Source: an uncultured virus (IMG/VR IMGVR_UViG_3300024946_000002) (lineage: Duplodnaviria > Heunggongvirae > Uroviricota > Caudoviricetes). Taken from it: DNA of 20,000 nucleotides. The notes beneath the pieces were generated by a model that was given only the letters and a program-made list of their open reading frames with translations, had not been told where the DNA came from and made no database searches. A program made the position numbers and the translations under genes. Location: IMG/VR virus record IMGVR_UViG_3300024946_000002; one strand, 5' to 3'. Below are positions 4,524 to 17,838 of this stretch, piece by piece (position 1 is the first letter of the stretch; each line of letters opens with the position of its first letter).

Positions 4524-5033
4524 TTACTCTACAATTTGCCAATCATCAGCAAGCATGTCTGACTGACTAGCAAGCCAACCCATAAGAATTTCACCTGATG
4601 CTGTTTTCATGAGGATGTATGGGAGCACTTCGGCTGAGCCACCGTTTAATTCAGCATGGTTGCGCGTATGTTTATTCCAGAATTTCTCTGCTGGTAATGA
4701 TTTAGCGCCTTCACCTTTAGCAATCCACATGCCTTTGCCATTCCAACCAGCGCGTGCAACTTTTTTACCTTGGCCCATTGCATCCAATGCAAGCCCAAAA
4801 CTTAAGCCATCAACTGCTCTGTAAGCATTATCAAACTGCTCTTTAGGTGACCATGAAACATAGCCTGCATATTGCTCAGTGTTAGGCTTGCCGCCATCTT
4901 TGTACTCGACTAAATAGCCTTCATCATTACCGTTCTCATTTGCTGGCAATGTCCATCCGCGAAACTCGTTGTAAGCTAAGCGTGTCATTGGAATTGCATT
5001 GATAATCTTGGTGCCGATATATGTTTTCATCAC
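4524..5033 (-). CDS. tad2: Two-domain protein: N-terminal SWSPK domain plus C-terminal DUF2829 (Tad2-like sponge, anti-Thoeris)
   Basis: C-terminal LSFGLALDAMGQGKKVARAGWNGKGMWI...PYILMKTA.G...GWLASQSDMLADDWQIV is DUF2829/Tad2. The N-terminal KTYIGTK...GYLVEYKDGG...YVSWSPKEQFDNAY is a separate domain. Confidence 0.82.
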   Translation of the reverse strand: MMKTYIGTKIINAIPMTRLAYNEFRGWTLPANENGNDEGYLVEYKDGGKPNTEQYAGYVSWSPKEQFDNAYRAVDGLSFGLALDAMGQGKKVARAGWNGKGMWIAKGEGAKSLPAEKFWNKHTRNHAELNGGSAEVLPYILMKTASGEILMGWLASQSDMLADDWQIVE

Positions 5034-7869: not shown

Positions 7870-8061
7870 TTATGCTGCTTTTTTAAGAAGCTTTAATTTG
7901 ACTGCTAGCATTTCAATGCGCTTTCCTGCATCGTATGAAATGCTTGATTGCTTGCCGTTAACAATGTCAGAAATTCGAGATTGCGGAACATTTGATCTAC
8001 GCGATATTTCCGTTTGGGTAAGGCCGTAATCAAGTAATTTTTTAATAATTTCACTAATCAT
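7870..8061 (-). CDS. cro: Cro-like repressor
   Basis: 63-aa XRE HTH (GLTQTEISRRSNVPQSRISDI), divergent from cI. Confidence 0.88.
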   Translation of the reverse strand: MISEIIKKLLDYGLTQTEISRRSNVPQSRISDIVNGKQSSISYDAGKRIEMLAVKLKLLKKAA

Positions 8062-8069
8062 AGGAAATG

Positions 8070-8097
8070 ATTATACGCATTCGTATTCATAAGTCAA
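8070..8097 (-). promoter_or_regulatory. PR-like promoter (cro operon)
   Basis: Minus strand TTGACT (8097-8092), 16-bp spacer, TATAAT (8075-8070). Confidence 0.8.
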
Positions 8098-8136
8098 TAC
8101 GAATTTGCATTAGCAATTTTATATACGTTATCGGAT
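8073..8136. promoter_or_regulatory. OR-like triple operator
   Basis: 14-bp pseudo-palindromes ATACGCATTCGTAT (8073), ATACGAATTTGCAT (8097) and ATACGTTATCGGAT (8123), spaced 24-26 bp. Confidence 0.85.
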
Positions 8137-8139
8137 AAT
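8111..8139 (+). promoter_or_regulatory. PRM-like promoter (cI)
   Basis: TAGCAA (8111-16), 17-bp spacer, GATAAT (8134-39). The cI ATG is 6 nt downstream. Confidence 0.65.
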
Positions 8140-8145
8140 AAAAAG

Positions 8146-8787
8146 ATGGAATTTAAAGATTGGTTAAAATCAAAAATGGCAAAAAGAGAGCTTAATAGTG
8201 CCTCTCTTGCGGAAGCTATTAGCGAAAATCAACCAACAATTTATAGAATATTAAGTGGCGAAACAAAAAACCCAAGACTGCACATAGTAAAAAAGATTGA
8301 ATCATTTTTTAATGAAGAGTTTTTAAATGCTGAAGCAATGTCAACAACAACATCTACAAGTGACATTGTAATTAATCAATACCATGACATAAGGGGCGCT
8401 ATGGGAAATGGCTTAGTGCTTCGGGGTGAATCTGGGCAAATAACAGGATGGAAAGTGACGCCTGAGTGGCTAAACAAAAATGTACCATCTAACACTGGCA
8501 ATAAGAATTTGACTATCGTTACAGGCTTCGGTGATTCAATGAGGGGAATGTTTAACTCTGGTGATCCGTTGCTAGTAGATGCTGGCGTTAAAAATTTAGA
8601 GTATGACGGTGTGTATTTCTTTAGGATTGGTGACGAAGGTTTTATTAAAACACTTCAAAGAATACCAGGTGAAGGTATCAGAGTGATTTCTGAAAATAAA
8701 AAATACGAAACATGGACAATTACTAAAGATATGGAATTTGAAGTCTTTGGCCGCGTTTTAAAGGTATGGAAAAGCGAAGAGTTTTAG
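8146..8787 (+). CDS. cI: CI-like repressor (XRE HTH plus S24 autopeptidase)
   Basis: N-terminal HTH (NSASLAEAISENQPTIYRILSGETKNPR), AMGNG cleavage-loop region, GDSM catalytic Ser, FIKTL catalytic Lys, VFGRV end. Confidence 0.95.
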   Translation: MEFKDWLKSKMAKRELNSASLAEAISENQPTIYRILSGETKNPRLHIVKKIESFFNEEFLNAEAMSTTTSTSDIVINQYHDIRGAMGNGLVLRGESGQITGWKVTPEWLNKNVPSNTGNKNLTIVTGFGDSMRGMFNSGDPLLVDAGVKNLEYDGVYFFRIGDEGFIKTLQRIPGEGIRVISENKKYETWTITKDMEFEVFGRVLKVWKSEEF

Positions 8788-10653: not shown

Positions 10654-11613
10654 ATGAGTACAGCATTATCAGAACAGCAAAATTCAGGGTTGGCATCATA
10701 CAACGACAACATGATGATGGACGTTCAGGCGATGAAGCACATGATGGATGTTGCTAGCTTTATGTCTGGCGCAACAATGACATTGCCACAACCGTATCAA
10801 AAGAACCCAGCTAACTGCTTAGCGGTAGTGATGCAAGCGGCGCAATGGAAGATGAACCCTTTTGCAGTTGCTCAAAAGACACACTTTGTTAATGGCACTA
10901 TCGGCTATGAGGCGCAGTTAGTTTCTGCGGTAATTCAGCAATCTGGTGTAGTGACTGGCATGTTCGAGTTTGAATGGTTCGGTGACTGGTCAAAGGTTAT
11001 CGGAAAGTTCAAAGAAGTCGAAAGTAAATCTAAGACAGATGACTATGGCAGACCTAAAAAATACAAAGTTCCAGCATGGGATTTTAAGGATGAAGAAGGT
11101 CTTGGCATTCGCGTATCAGCAACATTACGTGGTGAAAGTCAGCCTCGCGTTCTTGAGTTGCTTCTAACTCAGGCAACAACTAGAAATTCAACATTATGGG
11201 CAGATGATCCTAAGCAGCAAATTGCATATCTTGGTGAAAAGCGTTGGGCTAGATTGTATTGCCCTGGCGTTATCTTGGGTGTTTATACATCGGATGAGCT
11301 AGAAACTATCCCTGCTGAAAAAGACATTACGCCAACTCAAGATAGCGCCAAAGCCGAACCTGTTTATTACACAGATGATGAATTCAATGCTAACGAAAAA
11401 GCATGGAAAAAAGTGATAGCAAACGGCAAAGCACCTAAACAGTTTATTGCCTTCGTTGAAAGCAAAGGCAAGTTATTCACGGAAAACCAAAAAGAAGAGA
11501 TTGAGCTTTGGTCACCAAAAGAGAAAGCGCCTACCGTTGTTGAAGGCGAAGCAACCAAAGTAGATGACAGTTTTACAGCAGCCTACGAAAAGGCAGAAAG
11601 CGCAGCTAAATAA
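10654..11613 (+). CDS. recT: RecT-family single-strand annealing protein
   Basis: NPANCLAVVMQAAQWKMNPFAVAQKTHFVNGTIGYEAQLV and RNSTLWADDPKQQIAYL..KRWARLYCPGVILGVYT.DE. Confidence 0.92.
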   Translation: MSTALSEQQNSGLASYNDNMMMDVQAMKHMMDVASFMSGATMTLPQPYQKNPANCLAVVMQAAQWKMNPFAVAQKTHFVNGTIGYEAQLVSAVIQQSGVVTGMFEFEWFGDWSKVIGKFKEVESKSKTDDYGRPKKYKVPAWDFKDEEGLGIRVSATLRGESQPRVLELLLTQATTRNSTLWADDPKQQIAYLGEKRWARLYCPGVILGVYTSDELETIPAEKDITPTQDSAKAEPVYYTDDEFNANEKAWKKVIANGKAPKQFIAFVESKGKLFTENQKEEIELWSPKEKAPTVVEGEATKVDDSFTAAYEKAESAAK

Positions 11614-11614
11614 C

Positions 11615-13237
11615 ATGAACATTCATAACTTAGTACAAGGTACACCAGAGTGGCACGCACACCGCGCTAATTACTTCAACGCAAGTGAAGCGCCAGCCAT
11701 GCTAGGTGTTAGCAAATACACAACACGCGACCAGTTAATCCATTCTATGGCAACTGGACTAACCAAAGAAGTAGATGCTAGCACACAAAAGATTTTTGAT
11801 AACGGCCATAAATTTGAAGCCCTAGCACGCCCTATTGCCGAAAAAATCATCGGTGAAGATTTATACCCTGTTGTTGGCTCAATGGGTGAATACAGCGCCT
11901 CATTTGATGGCATTACGATGGGCGAAGATATTATCTTTGAACACAAAACGCTAAACGATGAGCTGCGTGAATGCTTTGCAAATGGTGAGCAAACACCTTT
12001 GATGTATCGCGTACAGATGGAGCAACAACTAATGGTTTCAGGCGCTGAAAAGTGCCTATTCATGGCATCAAAATGGGATGGTGAGCAATTAGTAGAAGAG
12101 TTGCATTGCTGGTACACCCAAGACATAGAGCTACGTAAGCGCATTGTGGATGGCTGGAACCAATTAAAAGCTGATTTAGATGCATACGTTCCACCAGTAA
12201 AGGTTGAAAAGGTAGAAGCTGAAACAATCAAAGCCCTACCAGTGCCTAGCGTTGTGGTACGTGGTGAAATTACTGCATCGAATCTAACTGAAATCACACC
12301 GCAGTTCGATACTTACCTAGAAAGCATAAAAACAGAGTTAAGCACTGATCAAGACTTTGCGGACGCAGAAGCTAATGCTAAGAACTGCCGCGAAATGGCA
12401 AAGCGCATCGAGGCATTGCAAGAAAACATCATCGGTCAAATGGTGACAGTTAACGAAGCAAACGGCATTCTTGAGAACTACAAAAAAGCATTTAACGCGA
12501 TTGGTCTACGATTAGAGAAAGCAGTTAAAGATCAAAAAGAAATGCTCAAAACGCAAGCAATCATGAAAGCAAATGTGGTTTACGCTGATTTTGTAACTGA
12601 GTTAAACAAAGATATTCCAGTATTGCTTGCACAGAAATTGGTACGCCCTGACTTTGCCACTGAGATTAAAGGCGTTAAGACACTAGAAACAATGCAATCA
12701 CGCATCAATAGCGCATTGGCTAACGGCAAGGTAGAAGCAACCACCTTAGCGAATGACGTTAAATCAAAACTAGCCTATATCAATGAAGCAATCAAAGGCT
12801 ATGAGCACTTGGTTAACGTGAATGCAATCGTGTTTGGTGACATTGATTATATCAAACTACACATTCAATCAGTAAAAGACGCTGAGGACGTGCGCAAAGC
12901 TAAGCATGAAGCCGCTATCAAAGAGCAAGCCGAAGCAGATGCACGCGCCAAAATTGAAGCCGAGGCCAAAGCTAAAGAGGCTGCTGAAATCAAAGCACGC
13001 GAAGAGCTTGAAGCGCAAATCATTGCTGAGGCTAAGAGCGATGACGGTGCTGTTGTTGACGCGACATTTAACGAATCTGACTTTAAGAATGTGTTTGCAG
13101 AACCAATACAGAAAATTGCAAACGCTAAGCGCCCTACTGCTCAAGCAATCATCGCCCTAGTAGCAAAGACATACAACGTTGATACAGCTACGGCTAATCG
13201 CTGGTTGTCGCAGTCTTTTGGGTTGCAGGCGGCTTAA
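11615..13237 (+). CDS. yqaJ: YqaJ/lambda-exonuclease-family recombinase with a long coiled-coil C-terminus
   Basis: LVQGTPEWHAHR...ASEAPAMLG, GH..E..AR, SASFDG......FEHK, YRVQMEQQL.VSG. The likely start is the ATG at 11615, right after the recT stop. Confidence 0.9.
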   Translation: MNIHNLVQGTPEWHAHRANYFNASEAPAMLGVSKYTTRDQLIHSMATGLTKEVDASTQKIFDNGHKFEALARPIAEKIIGEDLYPVVGSMGEYSASFDGITMGEDIIFEHKTLNDELRECFANGEQTPLMYRVQMEQQLMVSGAEKCLFMASKWDGEQLVEELHCWYTQDIELRKRIVDGWNQLKADLDAYVPPVKVEKVEAETIKALPVPSVVVRGEITASNLTEITPQFDTYLESIKTELSTDQDFADAEANAKNCREMAKRIEALQENIIGQMVTVNEANGILENYKKAFNAIGLRLEKAVKDQKEMLKTQAIMKANVVYADFVTELNKDIPVLLAQKLVRPDFATEIKGVKTLETMQSRINSALANGKVEATTLANDVKSKLAYINEAIKGYEHLVNVNAIVFGDIDYIKLHIQSVKDAEDVRKAKHEAAIKEQAEADARAKIEAEAKAKEAAEIKAREELEAQIIAEAKSDDGAVVDATFNESDFKNVFAEPIQKIANAKRPTAQAIIALVAKTYNVDTATANRWLSQSFGLQAA

Positions 13238-13261
13238 AGAATCCCGTAGAGGAGTGCTGCG

Positions 13262-13426
13262 CGGTTTGTCCTAAATGGACGTTGCCTAACGTAAACCGAA
13301 TGGAGCGTTGAACAGTAGCCGATTGACTGGCGTAAGCAGTCACATGAATTAAGCCGACTTTATGATGTGGCGCATCACTAAAGCCAATGCGTAGGCTACC
13401 TCTTGTGGGGTTAAGTCGGTTTAATT
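13262..13426 (+). ncRNA. Cluster of structured RNA elements (three-way junction, hairpin, four-way cloverleaf)
   Basis: CGGTTT/AAACCG (13262-98) encloses GTCC/GGAC and CGTT/AACG. TGACTG/CAGTCA hairpin at 13324-42. A 14-bp stem AATTAAGCCGACTT/AAGTCGGTTTAATT (13347-13426) encloses three hairpins. Confidence 0.55.
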
Positions 13427-13574
13427 GATGGGTAATGCGTAGGCTGATACGCGGGCTGTGAAGCTAAAGGTTATTGAAGTACGACAAGGTTGCTCCTTCC
13501 CCTTGTTATGAGTAGATAGCAATGACGCGGAATGGTTTTGCAATGCCAGAGTTCAGTACTGGCACCCATCACCA
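13427..13574 (+). ncRNA. tRNA-like RNA (148 nt) with acceptor stem, D-like and T-like arms and encoded 3' ACCA
   Basis: GATGGGT/ACCCATC 7-bp stem plus ACCA, GCGT-AGGCTGAT-ACGC arm, GCCAG-AGTTCAGTA-CTGGC arm, and a long central hairpin instead of an anticodon arm. Confidence 0.7.
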
Positions 13575-13593
13575 ATTTTATGAAAGGTAGATC

Positions 13594-13935
13594 ATGGCTG
13601 TACTTGTTGAAGTTAAAAATGCAGTGATTAAAAAAGCAATTATAGACATAGGTGATAGAGGCTTTCTTACTGCAAGCCTACATCTTGACTATGGAGTGTG
13701 CATGCAACAATTTGGCGGCTTTGCACTATACCTACCAAAATCATTTGACCACCATAGATTAAATAGCAGTGCAGGACATTTTATTTTTAGAGTTTTGCAA
13801 ATTGCAGGCGTGGAACGTTGGGATCAGCTACAAAATCAGTGTGTTCGCGTTAAAGCAACTCACTCAGGCGTTATAGAAATAGGCCACATTATTATAGAAG
13901 ATTGGTTCAACCCTTTAGAAGACTTTAAGGAGTGA
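13594..13935 (+). CDS. Conserved hypothetical phage protein
   Basis: GAAAGG SD. NAVIK...DRGFLT..L.LDYG..QQFGG.AL...FIFRVLQIAGVERWDQL....VRV pattern. Confidence 0.85.
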   Translation: MAVLVEVKNAVIKKAIIDIGDRGFLTASLHLDYGVCMQQFGGFALYLPKSFDHHRLNSSAGHFIFRVLQIAGVERWDQLQNQCVRVKATHSGVIEIGHIIIEDWFNPLEDFKE

Positions 13936-13938
13936 TAA

Positions 13939-14013
13939 ATGGCAAAGCAATCTAAACGCAGCATTAAAAAGTCACGTAGAACTAAAGACCAAGATAAATG
14001 GCGGTGGCTATGA
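13939..14013 (+). CDS. 24-aa basic mini-ORF coupled to the HNH gene
   Basis: AAGGAG SD, MAKQSKRSIKKSRRTKDQDKWRWL*, ATGA overlap with the HNH start at 14010. Confidence 0.45.
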   Translation: MAKQSKRSIKKSRRTKDQDKWRWL

Positions 14014-14519
14014 AAAATATAAATGAAGATTTAATAAAAGAATTTCTTACCTACAATAAATTTACAGGTAAATTTTATTGGACTAAAGACTCTAAATTCT
14101 ATAAAAAAAATGAAGTTGCTGGATATTTAAGGCCTGATGGTTATGAAGTTATAACTATAAATGGGATTAAATATCTTTCTCATAGACTCGCATTTGTTTA
14201 TGTAAATGGAGATATTGGAAACTCAATAATAGACCATATTAATGGTTTGAGAAGTGACAATAGAATTGATAATTTAAGGATTTCTGACAAAAAAAGTAAT
14301 GCTAGAAATTGTGGAATTTACCAATCAAATAAATCAGGTTTTAAAGGAGTTACTTTTATAAAGTCAACTGGAAAATGGAGAGCTAGCGCAAGTTTTAACG
14401 GAAAAAGTAAACATATAGGTAATTATGAAACAAAAGAATTTGCTCGAGATGCTTACATAAGTTTTATAAATGAAAACTATGGTGAATTTATACATCATAG
14501 TCTATCAGCCAAAGATTGA
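14010..14519 (+). CDS. HNH homing endonuclease with C-terminal AP2 domain
   Basis: YLSHRLAF.Y..G......IDHINGLRSDNRIDNLR.....NARN, then NKSGFKGV....STGKWRAS...GK.KHIG.Y...E.A..AY. Markedly AT-rich. Confidence 0.92.
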   Translation: MKNINEDLIKEFLTYNKFTGKFYWTKDSKFYKKNEVAGYLRPDGYEVITINGIKYLSHRLAFVYVNGDIGNSIIDHINGLRSDNRIDNLRISDKKSNARNCGIYQSNKSGFKGVTFIKSTGKWRASASFNGKSKHIGNYETKEFARDAYISFINENYGEFIHHSLSAKD

Positions 14520-16520: not shown

Positions 16521-16703
16521 ATGAAAAACATTTATGAAATCAAAGATTGGATGGAGTACCTAGGCGCAAGCCGTGCAACGGTATCACGCTATATCAAATC
16601 TGGACTTATTCCAAAACCAGACCATATAGAGCCTCGCCCACGTTGGAATAAAAGCCCTATGACACTTGGGCTTCAATCCAATCAGAGTAATACTGCATCA
16701 TAG
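16521..16703 (+). CDS. xis: Excisionase / AlpA-like recombination directionality factor
   Basis: IKDWMEYLGASRATVSRYIKSGLIPKP......RW is a winged HTH of the AlpA/Xis type. Last gene of the early operon, adjacent to int. Confidence 0.82.
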   Translation: MKNIYEIKDWMEYLGASRATVSRYIKSGLIPKPDHIEPRPRWNKSPMTLGLQSNQSNTAS

Positions 16704-17838
16704 CGATTCTATGTTCAAGATACTCAGCACGATTATATGAAGCTCGCACATCATCTATTTCATTGTGTGCGAGTTGGCGCTCTATCCAATCTTTATCAAA
16801 GCGCCTACGACCATCAATCGTTTCATTGTTAAGCACAGTAGAGGCTAATGCCCTAAAGCCGTGGCCTGTCATTTTGCCTCGATACCCTAAACGATAGAGT
16901 GCAAATAATAGGGTATTCTCACTAATCGGATGGTTAGGCCGTTTAAGTGATCCAAGCACATACTTATCATCGCCAGTGTATTGCTCAAGCTCTTTGATGA
17001 TACTCAGTGCGAATTTAGTTAATGGTACTACGTGAGGCTTAGGCGTTTTTCCGGTAACCGTTTTCATGCGCTCACCAGGGATTACCCAAAACCTACCATC
17101 TTTAATTTCTTTACGCTCGAAATACCTTAGCTCAGTGGTCCGCACAAAGGTTAACGCCAATAACATCAAGCCAAGCCTAGTAACAGGTTCGTCATAGCTT
17201 TTAATTGCTTGAAACAGGTCTTTAGCTTCACTCACATCAATACATGGCATATGCGTGCGCACAGGCGTTCTGAGCACGCTGCATAAATTAGTTGCTGGAT
17301 GCAGTTGTATTTCATCGGTATTAACGGCATGCGTAAACACCTGCCCTAACCTACTGGCTATTCTGTTAGCAGTTTCAACAACACCTTTTGATTGAATTCC
17401 CTGCACCAACTCGACCAGCTCTTTGCGCGTAATCTTATCTAGTGGCTTGTCACCTATCTTCTCAAAAACATATTGGTCCATACTGGCCTGAATAATAGCC
17501 TTATGCTTCTGGCTTTTCAGATCAGGCAGATGATGCTTGTACCATTTCTCTTCGACAAACTGCTTGAAAGTCATTACACGGCTTTCAGTTAAGCCATGTA
17601 GCTTCAATCTCGCCTGCTCATCTTTAAACTCTGAATTTAATAATCTAGCCTTAGCTAAACTAATCTCAGGATATAGGCCATAAGTTTTGGTTTTGTATTT
17701 GTCTTGTGAATCTTTGTAGTTGTATCGCCATGATTTGATATTGCGAGGCGTAACTACTAAGTAAAGCCCTGCCATATCAGCAATCTTATATTGCTGCGCT
17801 TTAGGCTTTAGAGAATCAATCTGCTTAATGGTTAGCAT
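16657..17838 (-). CDS. int: Tyrosine integrase (P4-like, N-terminal arm-binding domain)
   Basis: MLTIKQIDSLKPK...YKIAD..GLYL.V...KSW.Y.Y arm domain. Catalytic R (TFVRTTELR), K (RMK), HGFR, LAH and Y (YNRAEY). Confidence 0.96.
   Translation of the reverse strand: MLTIKQIDSLKPKAQQYKIADMAGLYLVVTPRNIKSWRYNYKDSQDKYKTKTYGLYPEISLAKARLLNSEFKDEQARLKLHGLTESRVMTFKQFVEEKWYKHHLPDLKSQKHKAIIQASMDQYVFEKIGDKPLDKITRKELVELVQGIQSKGVVETANRIASRLGQVFTHAVNTDEIQLHPATNLCSVLRTPVRTHMPCIDVSEAKDLFQAIKSYDEPVTRLGLMLLALTFVRTTELRYFERKEIKDGRFWVIPGERMKTVTGKTPKPHVVPLTKFALSIIKELEQYTGDDKYVLGSLKRPNHPISENTLLFALYRLGYRGKMTGHGFRALASTVLNNETIDGRRRFDKDWIERQLAHNEIDDVRASYNRAEYLEHRIAMMQYYSDWIEAQVS

Follow-up and report, generated by a model that had tools for sequence, protein, structure and literature searches.

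A putative tRNA-shaped phage RNA with a variable arm is a member of a large uncatalogued family in phages and prophages of Beta- and Gammaproteobacteria

Introduction

The P1/P7 C4 and P4 CI antisense RNAs are small phage RNAs that RNase P releases from longer transcripts via a tRNA-like end. From the tRNA region of phage T4 come RNAC (species 1) and RNAD (species 2), two stable RNAs of small size whose role is given as unknown (PMC3014915); a second report classes them as late RNAs, checked by Northern blot (PMC9697503). Other small RNAs lie in the Q-to-lysis 'moron' region of lambdoid E. coli prophages. AgvB and AsxR are described there as Hfq-associated base-pairing sRNAs of 51-60 nt (PMC4104026), and the available description of PasD/STnc100 (RF02076) and the Pas type is that of terminator-ended Hfq-associated base-pairing sRNAs from the same neighbourhood (bioRxiv 10.64898/2026.05.13.724894).

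Here we analyse an RNA encoded in a window of 20,000 nt from an uncultured Caudoviricetes virus (IMG/VR IMGVR_UViG_3300024946_000002). The window comes from a 43.9-kb virus record that is complete and has terminal repeats. An initial annotation had flagged positions 13427-13574 (+) as a CCA-terminated tRNA mimic with complementary D and T loops. This observation is real, and the structural description was essentially right. Comparative sequence analysis places the window RNA in a large, uncatalogued family of tRNA-shaped RNAs, whose carriers are phages and prophages of Beta- and Gammaproteobacteria.

Like tRNA (RF00005) and the tRNA-like domain of tmRNA, the window RNA has a closing stem of 7 bp that runs on without a break into a T-like stem of 5 bp (12 stacked pairs), a D-like element in contact with the T-like loop, a tRNA-gene neighbourhood and an ACCA end. 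Unlike tRNA, it has no anticodon arm, its T-like loop has 9 instead of 7 nt and lacks the usual loop sequence, and its elbow consists of 4-5 Watson-Crick pairs between the two loops. The single-stranded NCCA of tRNA is present as ACCA at 13571-13574, CCA being usually not encoded in the family; no tRNA cloverleaf with an anticodon arm was found, and RF00005 did not match the window even at E up to 10. Position 3:70 is U-A and not the G3.U70 of tmRNA. A tmRNA identity was rejected on this point together with the lack of an internal tag frame and of any ARAGORN or Rfam tmRNA match.

The nearest analogy to the family is provided by T4 RNAC and RNAD. In the T4 record, both come immediately behind tRNA-Arg and on its strand; rnaD has ACCA at its end, and a canonical GGTTCGAATCC T-arm is present in rnaC. 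The T-loop of rnaC is a standard one, whereas the family has a 9-nt loop kissing the D-like loop, plus a swappable arm. Since our covariance model of the family (R1, see below) had no match in the tRNA region of T4 (66000-76000) at E up to 10, homology between the two is not detectable. The likeness to the C4 and P4 CI RNAs lies in the tRNA-like end on a small phage RNA; their Rfam family matched neither the window nor 30 other loci at permissive thresholds, and no complementary target of the window RNA was identified. AgvB/AsxR and PasD/STnc100 share a neighbourhood with the family, and in Klebsiella phage P01, the STnc100 annotation lies some 900 nt downstream of a family member. They are different RNAs: the window RNA has no terminator and has a closed four-way fold, and RF02076 matched neither the window nor 22 family loci.

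Results and Discussion

Genomic setting of the window RNA

Pfam scans of the window indicated a lambda-like temperate phage. The features around the RNA are as follows.

7870-8787: cro-like and cI-like repressors (Pfam scan)
10654-11613, + strand: RecT, in the early-left operon (Pfam scan)
11564-13237, + strand: RecE/YqaJ-type exonuclease of 557 aa, early-left operon (Pfam scan)
13238-13593: ORF-free stretch of 356 nt downstream of the exonuclease gene
13594-13935: orf113, with its ATG at 13594, right after the ORF-free stretch
13998-14519: endonuclease with HNH_3 and AP2 domains, of the free-standing homing-endonuclease type, after orf113
following the endonuclease: small ORFs, then an excisionase-like HTH protein
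16657-17838, - strand: integrase

The flagged interval, given as the final 148 nt of the ORF-free stretch, lies within the early-left operon, with the RecE-like exonuclease gene on one side and orf113 on the other. When the whole 43.9-kb genome was scanned with R1, 13427-13574 was the sole family copy. A search for promoters and terminators beside the RNA revealed no convincing one, and no terminator on the + strand next to it. An RNA-library contig of 182 nt (run X8) covers 13452-13633 and crosses the proposed 3' end; it may represent unprocessed RNA or carried-over DNA. The RNA-library data consist of contigs, which give neither transcript ends nor strand nor level, and in which uncovered parts carry no meaning.

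Some other properties of the window were recorded. The Pfam match of the exonuclease comprises residues 29-162 only, and its phage relatives align over roughly residues 5-455. The endonuclease stretch (13998-14519) has 27-31% G+C compared to about 42% in its surroundings and looks like a recent acquisition. A Tad2-like (Thoeris anti-defence 2) domain was found in a 169-aa protein encoded at 4524-5033 on the - strand (E 1.6e-23).

Fold of the window RNA

The RNA is composed of a 7-bp closing stem (P1), an AAU linker, a D-like hairpin, a variable arm, a T-like hairpin and an ACCA end:

13427-13433, + strand: 5' strand of P1, the closing, acceptor-like stem, GATGGGT; 7/7 pairing with 13564-13570
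13434-13436, + strand: AAU linker from P1 to the D-like hairpin; AAT nearly invariant in alignments A1 and A2
13437-13452, + strand: D-like hairpin GCGTA-GGCTGA-TACGC; columns invariant or nearly so in A1
13453-13544, + strand: variable arm (cargo) of 92 nt, folded under constraint
13545-13563, + strand: T-like hairpin GCCAG-AGTTCAGTA-CTGGC with a 9-nt loop; stacks on P1
13564-13570, + strand: 3' strand of P1, ACCCATC; 7/7 pairing with 13427-13433
13571-13574, + strand: ACCA tail, the opening four bases of the conserved linker CACCAATTTTATGAAAGGTAGATC
13575-13593, + strand: conserved linker and ribosome-binding region ahead of orf113

The perfect 7-bp stem followed by ACCA is present as described in the initial annotation, and so is the 5-bp T-like arm stacked on the closing stem, with zero bases between CTGGC and ACCCATC. 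The D-like arm also exists, but the 4 bp and 8-nt loop ascribed to it have to be revised, as the homologues favour 5 bp (GCGTA/TACGC) and a 6-nt GGCTGA loop. Linker and D-like hairpin together (13434-13452) read AAT GCGTAGGCTGATACGC, which fits the family pattern AAU plus GCGYA-GGCUGA-URCGC. The proposed complementarity of the two loops is real: GCUGA and UCAGU form four Watson-Crick pairs and one G.U pair, with a duplex energy of -5.3 kcal/mol. In the constrained fold, the arm consists of a small hairpin, the long interrupted hairpin that had been proposed for the middle (loop UUGCUCCUUCC), and a second small hairpin. The notion of a tRNA-shaped scaffold without an anticodon arm was borne out, with the 92-nt insert occupying the place of that arm.

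The cloverleaf-like constrained fold has a free energy of -46.9 kcal/mol, calculated without the kissing term, compared to -47.7 kcal/mol for the minimum free energy (MFE) fold. The MFE fold of the RNA alone gave a z score of -1.76 and was equalled by 12 of 200 shuffled sequences. As this is only modestly unusual, and weak evidence taken singly, the case for a fold above chance rests on the homologues. In addition, T13426 is able to pair with A13571.

It had been expected that no canonical match would be found. Indeed, ARAGORN detected neither tRNA nor tmRNA in the window (0 genes), and Rfam 15 returned 0 matches in the window at gathering score and noise only at E up to 10 over 13000-14000. 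At permissive thresholds, no Rfam model matched in the window and 30 other loci; only true nearby tRNAs were found. In agreement with the initial annotation, the libraries searched offer no named family for this RNA.

Close relatives share flanks and differ in the interior

Close relatives were defined as loci encoding relatives of the RecE-like exonuclease; loci are referred to below by L numbers. Comparison with these loci showed that the ORF-free stretch is a mosaic. It has a shared 5' part up to 13452 and shared last 29 bases (CCCATCACCA plus the ribosome-binding linker), while the middle (13453-13564) is different in every close relative, as had been anticipated for the arm. No homologue of the arm itself (13453-13544) was found among 81 related loci or in the phage collection, and contigs from other sequencing runs contain other inserts between identical flanks.

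Altogether six interiors were found between common GATGG...CCATC-ACCA ends. Within the closing stem, pairs six and seven vary on both sides (GT/AC, GG/CC, TG/CA). The D-like and T-like hairpins are retained in three interiors, those of the window, L083 and L010, in which the loops pair as GCUGA/UCAGU, GCUG/CAGC and GCGA/UCGC. In L010 (interior v3), an altered D-like loop, GGCGA, is answered by UCGC, so that loop pairing is kept in v1, v2, v3 and in L230, a divergent locus described below. The other three interiors (v4-v6; L005, L011 and L084) are structured and 94, 131 and 167 nt long, one of them with two GNRA-type loops. They match neither R1 nor Rfam, though closing stem and flanks are in common. 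Because v4-v6 use the closing stem and flanks without matching R1, these parts act as recombination joints as well.

The linker was found to be identical in L004, L005, L008-L011 and L119, a Methylotenera MAG locus, ahead of different genes. In L004, a genuine tRNA-Arg(UCU) ends at this linker, L010 and L084 have a tRNA-Met just upstream, and in L008/L009 only the 3' end of a tRNA remains ahead of it. The ACCA of the window copy belongs to a linker that the phage group reuses, also behind genuine tRNAs. Counted as 24-29 bases (CACCAATTTTATGAAAGGTAGATC, 13565-13593), it stands ahead of at least four different genes, and a tRNA, a tRNA-shaped RNA or an unrelated RNA may precede it; it resembles a recombination joint in which the ribosome-binding site is included. 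In L026 (about 4640-4770), a tandem pair of GGTTCGATTCC T-arm-like motifs, in which ARAGORN calls no tRNA, precedes a similar linker.

A scan of genome contigs with 17 bases of the linker gave matches of just 17-25 bases at all loci but one, and these look like chance. The full 24-base linker was found in that scan in L119 only. Since the Methylotenera MAG has the same linker, this points to Methylophilaceae as the host group.

Family search and covariance model R1

Nucleotide searches with the locus itself found little. With blastn, the whole intergenic region had no match in the phage collection, an exact 30-mer of the 3' end had none in IMG/VR, and the search for relatives of orf113 yielded one locus, which lacks the RNA. 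A blastn search of 361 Methylophilaceae genomes with 13320-13452 gave two short matches only, one of which led to L230. This divergent copy in a Methylophilaceae genome has the closing stem TGTGGTG/CGCCACA and two unchanged hairpins. Because the hairpins are kept in L230 despite the very different closing stem, we searched with the D-like motif alone. It matched in 10 of the 361 Methylophilaceae genomes (reversed control pattern, 0) and in at least 121 loci of IMG/VR.

The resulting family consensus is a 7-bp P1, AAU, GCGCA-GGCUGA-UGCGC, an insert of 26-359 nt (92 nt in the window), GCCGG-AGAUCAGCA-CCGGC and the 3' strand of P1. The T-like hairpin has the family consensus GCCGG-AGATCAGCA-CCGGC, and the loop consensus pairs GCUGA with UCAGC. 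Short inserts show no resemblance to anticodon stem-loops.

The covariance model R1 was built from 60 family sequences, with the window left out, and has 125 model positions. It matched the window end to end, positions 1-125 aligning with 13427-13574 (+) at 65.8 bits (E 3.8e-17). L083 scored 66.7 bits and L230 58.6 bits; the L010 type was weaker at 16-25 bits. When 75 further loci were scanned, a few of which had also served for training (as checked for L232, L233 and L241), 71 matched, and the four misses were Methylophilaceae pattern matches. The initial annotation had proposed to test a model built from phage homologues for a variable middle and for covarying D and T loops. The middle is variable, and the loop pairing is changed on both sides in one lineage (L010).

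Covariation and conservation

The T-like hairpin was found at a fixed position, without positional freedom, in 93 of 113 distinct sites. P1 is paired 7/7 in a fixed register in 78 of these 93, compared to 8.7 for permuted partners, and is represented by 42 distinct 5' strands. In an alignment of 62 sequences, 98.2% of the cells are paired, with changes on both sides at 13 of the 22 pairs; none of 500 shuffles reached the observed value, and slid controls paired in 24-49%. Double-sided changes occur in all seven P1 pairs and all five T-stem pairs. A pair of the D-like stem is C-G in 54 sequences and U-A in 8, with zero mismatches. These data show a four-way-junction fold with a kissing-loop elbow as in tRNA and a cassette-like arm in the place of the anticodon arm. 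Because G.U cells outnumber A.C cells (31 versus 6), the + strand is the folding one.

The loop-loop pairs hardly vary across the alignment, which is in part explained by the search pattern, as it fixes the D-like loop. Hardly any sequence variation is seen in the D-like and T-like stems either, and folding alone is not a sufficient explanation for this. Sequence is kept in the linker, in both hairpins and in the A-rich bases ahead of the T-like hairpin, but not in P1 and the insert, which vary freely. GATC occurs in the T-like loop of most copies.

Three features of the window RNA that the initial annotation had emphasized do not extend to the family. NCCA follows P1 directly in only 7 of 98 members; their tails are A/C-rich yet consistent with simple composition. 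Nor is the acceptor length of 7 bp general. Position -1 pairs with +1 in 59 of 88 members, where about 33 are expected (our own arithmetic), so that the helix is often one pair longer than a tRNA acceptor stem. Finally, the anti-Shine-Dalgarno-like character of the loop in the arm is not reflected in the 12 most enriched arm words, at any length tested.

These results also bear on the idea that the palindromes and inverted ends act at the DNA level, as recombination or protein sites for cassette swaps, with the RNA fold as a by-product. The exchange of the interior between identical flanks within the phage group, the GATGG/CCATC ends common to unrelated interiors, and the GATC of the T-like loop would all fit such an element. 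The excess of G.U over A.C cells, however, points to a folded + strand rather than to duplex DNA. Moreover, the closing stem covaries without sequence conservation, unlike a protein site or a patch of homology, and no recombinase was consistently found near family copies in the loci examined. We therefore give this explanation very little credence.

Distribution of the family and the preferred reading

A typical member matched 156 cultured-phage records, among them phages of Klebsiella (58), Escherichia (36) and Pseudomonas (25); further cultured carriers are phages of Salmonella, Aeromonas, Erwinia and Hafnia and Stx-converting phages. The cultured phage vB_EcoM-ep3 carries a copy that scores 83.4 bits with R1. 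P22 has no family member. Copies were found in 753 of 5426 complete E. coli genomes, that is, about one in seven carries the family, well-studied prophages included. No annotated feature lies beneath the E. coli match in any of the 25 matches listed. In the E. coli prophage L364, the copy is located between the genes for the Q antiterminator and holin, and in prophage L363 between a ParA-family gene and yfdP; their R1 scores are 83 and 97 bits. Some viral contigs have two copies at a short distance, with different closing stems and arms (L315, 494-603 and 921-1043; L243/L244).

Klebsiella phage P01 and Aeromonas phage ST4 have a copy upstream of tRNA clusters on the same strand. Of 88 oriented loci, 11 contained a tRNA in the flanks that were fetched, which for most loci measured about 0.5 kb per side. 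Of 18 flanking tRNAs, 17 are on the strand of the RNA, the nearest starting 7-8 nt after P1.

Literature searches with exact core strings and with words found no paper describing this RNA family. The core string was absent from six supplementary files of PMC10690425. As three files, including the two largest, fell outside this search, the family may be among the 10,006 unnamed candidates of that study. It is a widespread family without a name in Rfam 15, in the genome annotations inspected and in searchable papers.

We consider it somewhat better than even (probability about 0.55) that the family represents a co-transcribed tRNA-like scaffold RNA, excised like its tRNA neighbours, in which a fixed elbow core is combined with a phage-specific arm. 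The window RNA would be transcribed with its operon and fold as an autonomous domain. Its 5' end would be released by RNase P, cutting at the 5' side of G13427 as for the neighbouring tRNAs, and its 3' end by endo- or exonucleases that trim as far as the closing stem, leaving ACCA in the window. By analogy with tRNAs, excision is probably carried out by tRNA-processing enzymes. The invariant elbow core would confer stability and serve as a handle for a conserved host factor, and the swappable arm would be the part that differs in function between phages. Points against this reading are the RNA-library contig across the 3' end, the rarity of NCCA behind P1, the often longer closing helix, the 9-nt T-like loop and the negative results with ARAGORN and the Rfam tRNA model, the nearly invariant hairpin stems, and the v4-v6 interiors.

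Only tentatively do we suggest a further step, namely that the family is a natural 'tRNA scaffold' display. An invariant core with an artificial elbow would make, stabilize and deliver interchangeable RNA cargos, and would be recognized by a universally conserved host machine, for which RNase P, the ribosome and a tRNA-targeting defence nuclease are candidates. The cargos would be exchanged when phages recombine at the conserved hairpins, and each phage would have its own decoy, sponge or antisense arm.

The positions of the copies could also be explained by a cis-acting element for punctuation or stability that is never a free RNA and that gives a cleavage or protection signal between the exonuclease part and the part of the transcript from orf113 onward, comparable to tRNAs in mitochondrial transcripts. 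The copies are always on the strand of the flanking genes, inside operons or leaders (Q-holin in L364, ParA-yfdP in L363, exonuclease-orf113 in the window), an own promoter or terminator was not found, the ribosome-binding linker of the next gene begins right behind the RNA, and one RNA-library contig bridges the 3' end. A mere cleavage signal, however, would need neither a large, ever-changing structured arm nor two hairpins that are nearly invariant across phages of Beta- and Gammaproteobacteria, and some genomes have two different copies within a short distance of each other. We regard this explanation as unlikely.

If the scaffold reading is correct, the family would be one of the most frequent structured RNAs lacking annotation in phages of enterobacteria, Pseudomonas and methylotrophs, and the question posed by the T4-type 'extra' stable RNAs of phage tRNA clusters, open for a long time, would become testable in tractable hosts. 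A fixed tRNA-like chassis with an exchanged arm mirrors the tRNA scaffolds that have been engineered for recombinant RNA expression. For annotation, gaps that bear the family are currently taken as empty spacers.

Tag frames and neighbouring structured modules

A frame resembling a tmRNA tag, ANDDVVLMAA with two stops behind it, was found in L364 (4787-4822) and also in L259 and L280, 214-350 nt upstream of the tRNA-shaped RNA. In this region, weak matches to the permuted and betaproteobacterial tmRNA models were obtained (E 0.066 and 0.09). The tag frame was rejected as a feature of the family, since no more than 2 of 126 viral loci have it alongside and the window lacks it. An AN...AA-stop pattern was not found inside the insert; on the + strand of the window it matches once, where the exonuclease ORF ends.

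We considered in this context whether the RNA is a decayed relic of a tRNA or tmRNA, without function and kept for lying between useful genes. Real tRNAs occupy the same slot in relatives, L008/L009 retain a tRNA 3' end alone ahead of the linker, and the tmRNA-like matches lie near an E. coli copy. A relic, however, would not be expected to keep its fold by compensatory changes in hundreds of copies, or to have a core more conserved than the surrounding genes. For tmRNA in particular, the U-A at 3:70, the negative ARAGORN result and the rarity of the tag-like frame speak against it. This explanation is disfavoured and in our opinion highly improbable.

Upstream of the window RNA, two further structured elements were identified.

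13324-13342, + strand: hairpin A, TGACTG-GCGTAAG-CAGTCA, just past the exonuclease stop region
13347-13426, + strand: module B, with a closing stem of 14 bp (13347-13360 paired to 13413-13426) that encloses three small hairpins

The loop of hairpin A always holds CGTAA, and its stem changes with pairing kept in L012, L013, L026, L119 and L230. With a stop triplet in its loop, hairpin A is reminiscent of helix 5 of tmRNA; no tag frame precedes it in the window. Module B ends directly at the first base of P1 and is conserved in L005, L006, L010, L011 and L083-L091. The MFE fold of 13238-13426 gave a z score of -2.67.

These modules, together with the pattern of conservation, have to be taken into account when asking whether the RNA might be a new self-cleaving ribozyme or an aptamer, with the hairpins and the junction as active site or pocket and the insert as an optional peripheral domain. 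A conserved core with optional domains is the pattern of ribozymes and riboswitches. Linker, hairpins and A-rich bases are conserved in the family while P1 and insert are free, and the RNA often adjoins another structured module within 0-4 nt. On the other hand, no known Rfam ribozyme or riboswitch model matches, and the RNA has no consistent position ahead of one kind of gene, which makes a riboswitch unlikely. Overall, a ribozyme or aptamer seems improbable to us.

A long stem ending 0-4 nt before P1 is found repeatedly in the family. It is present with 9/9 Watson-Crick pairs in 12 loci, where about 0.3 would be expected (our own arithmetic), and only this subset is meaningful as a statistic. 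A looser count, which allowed 8/9 pairs with G.U and gave 70 of 89 loci, is at chance level given the freedom of the search and was discarded. Examples of upstream covarying stems are ATGGCGATT/AGTCGCCAG and GTAAGAGCA/TGCTCTTTC. Module B could represent a leader, a partner RNA or a family of its own.
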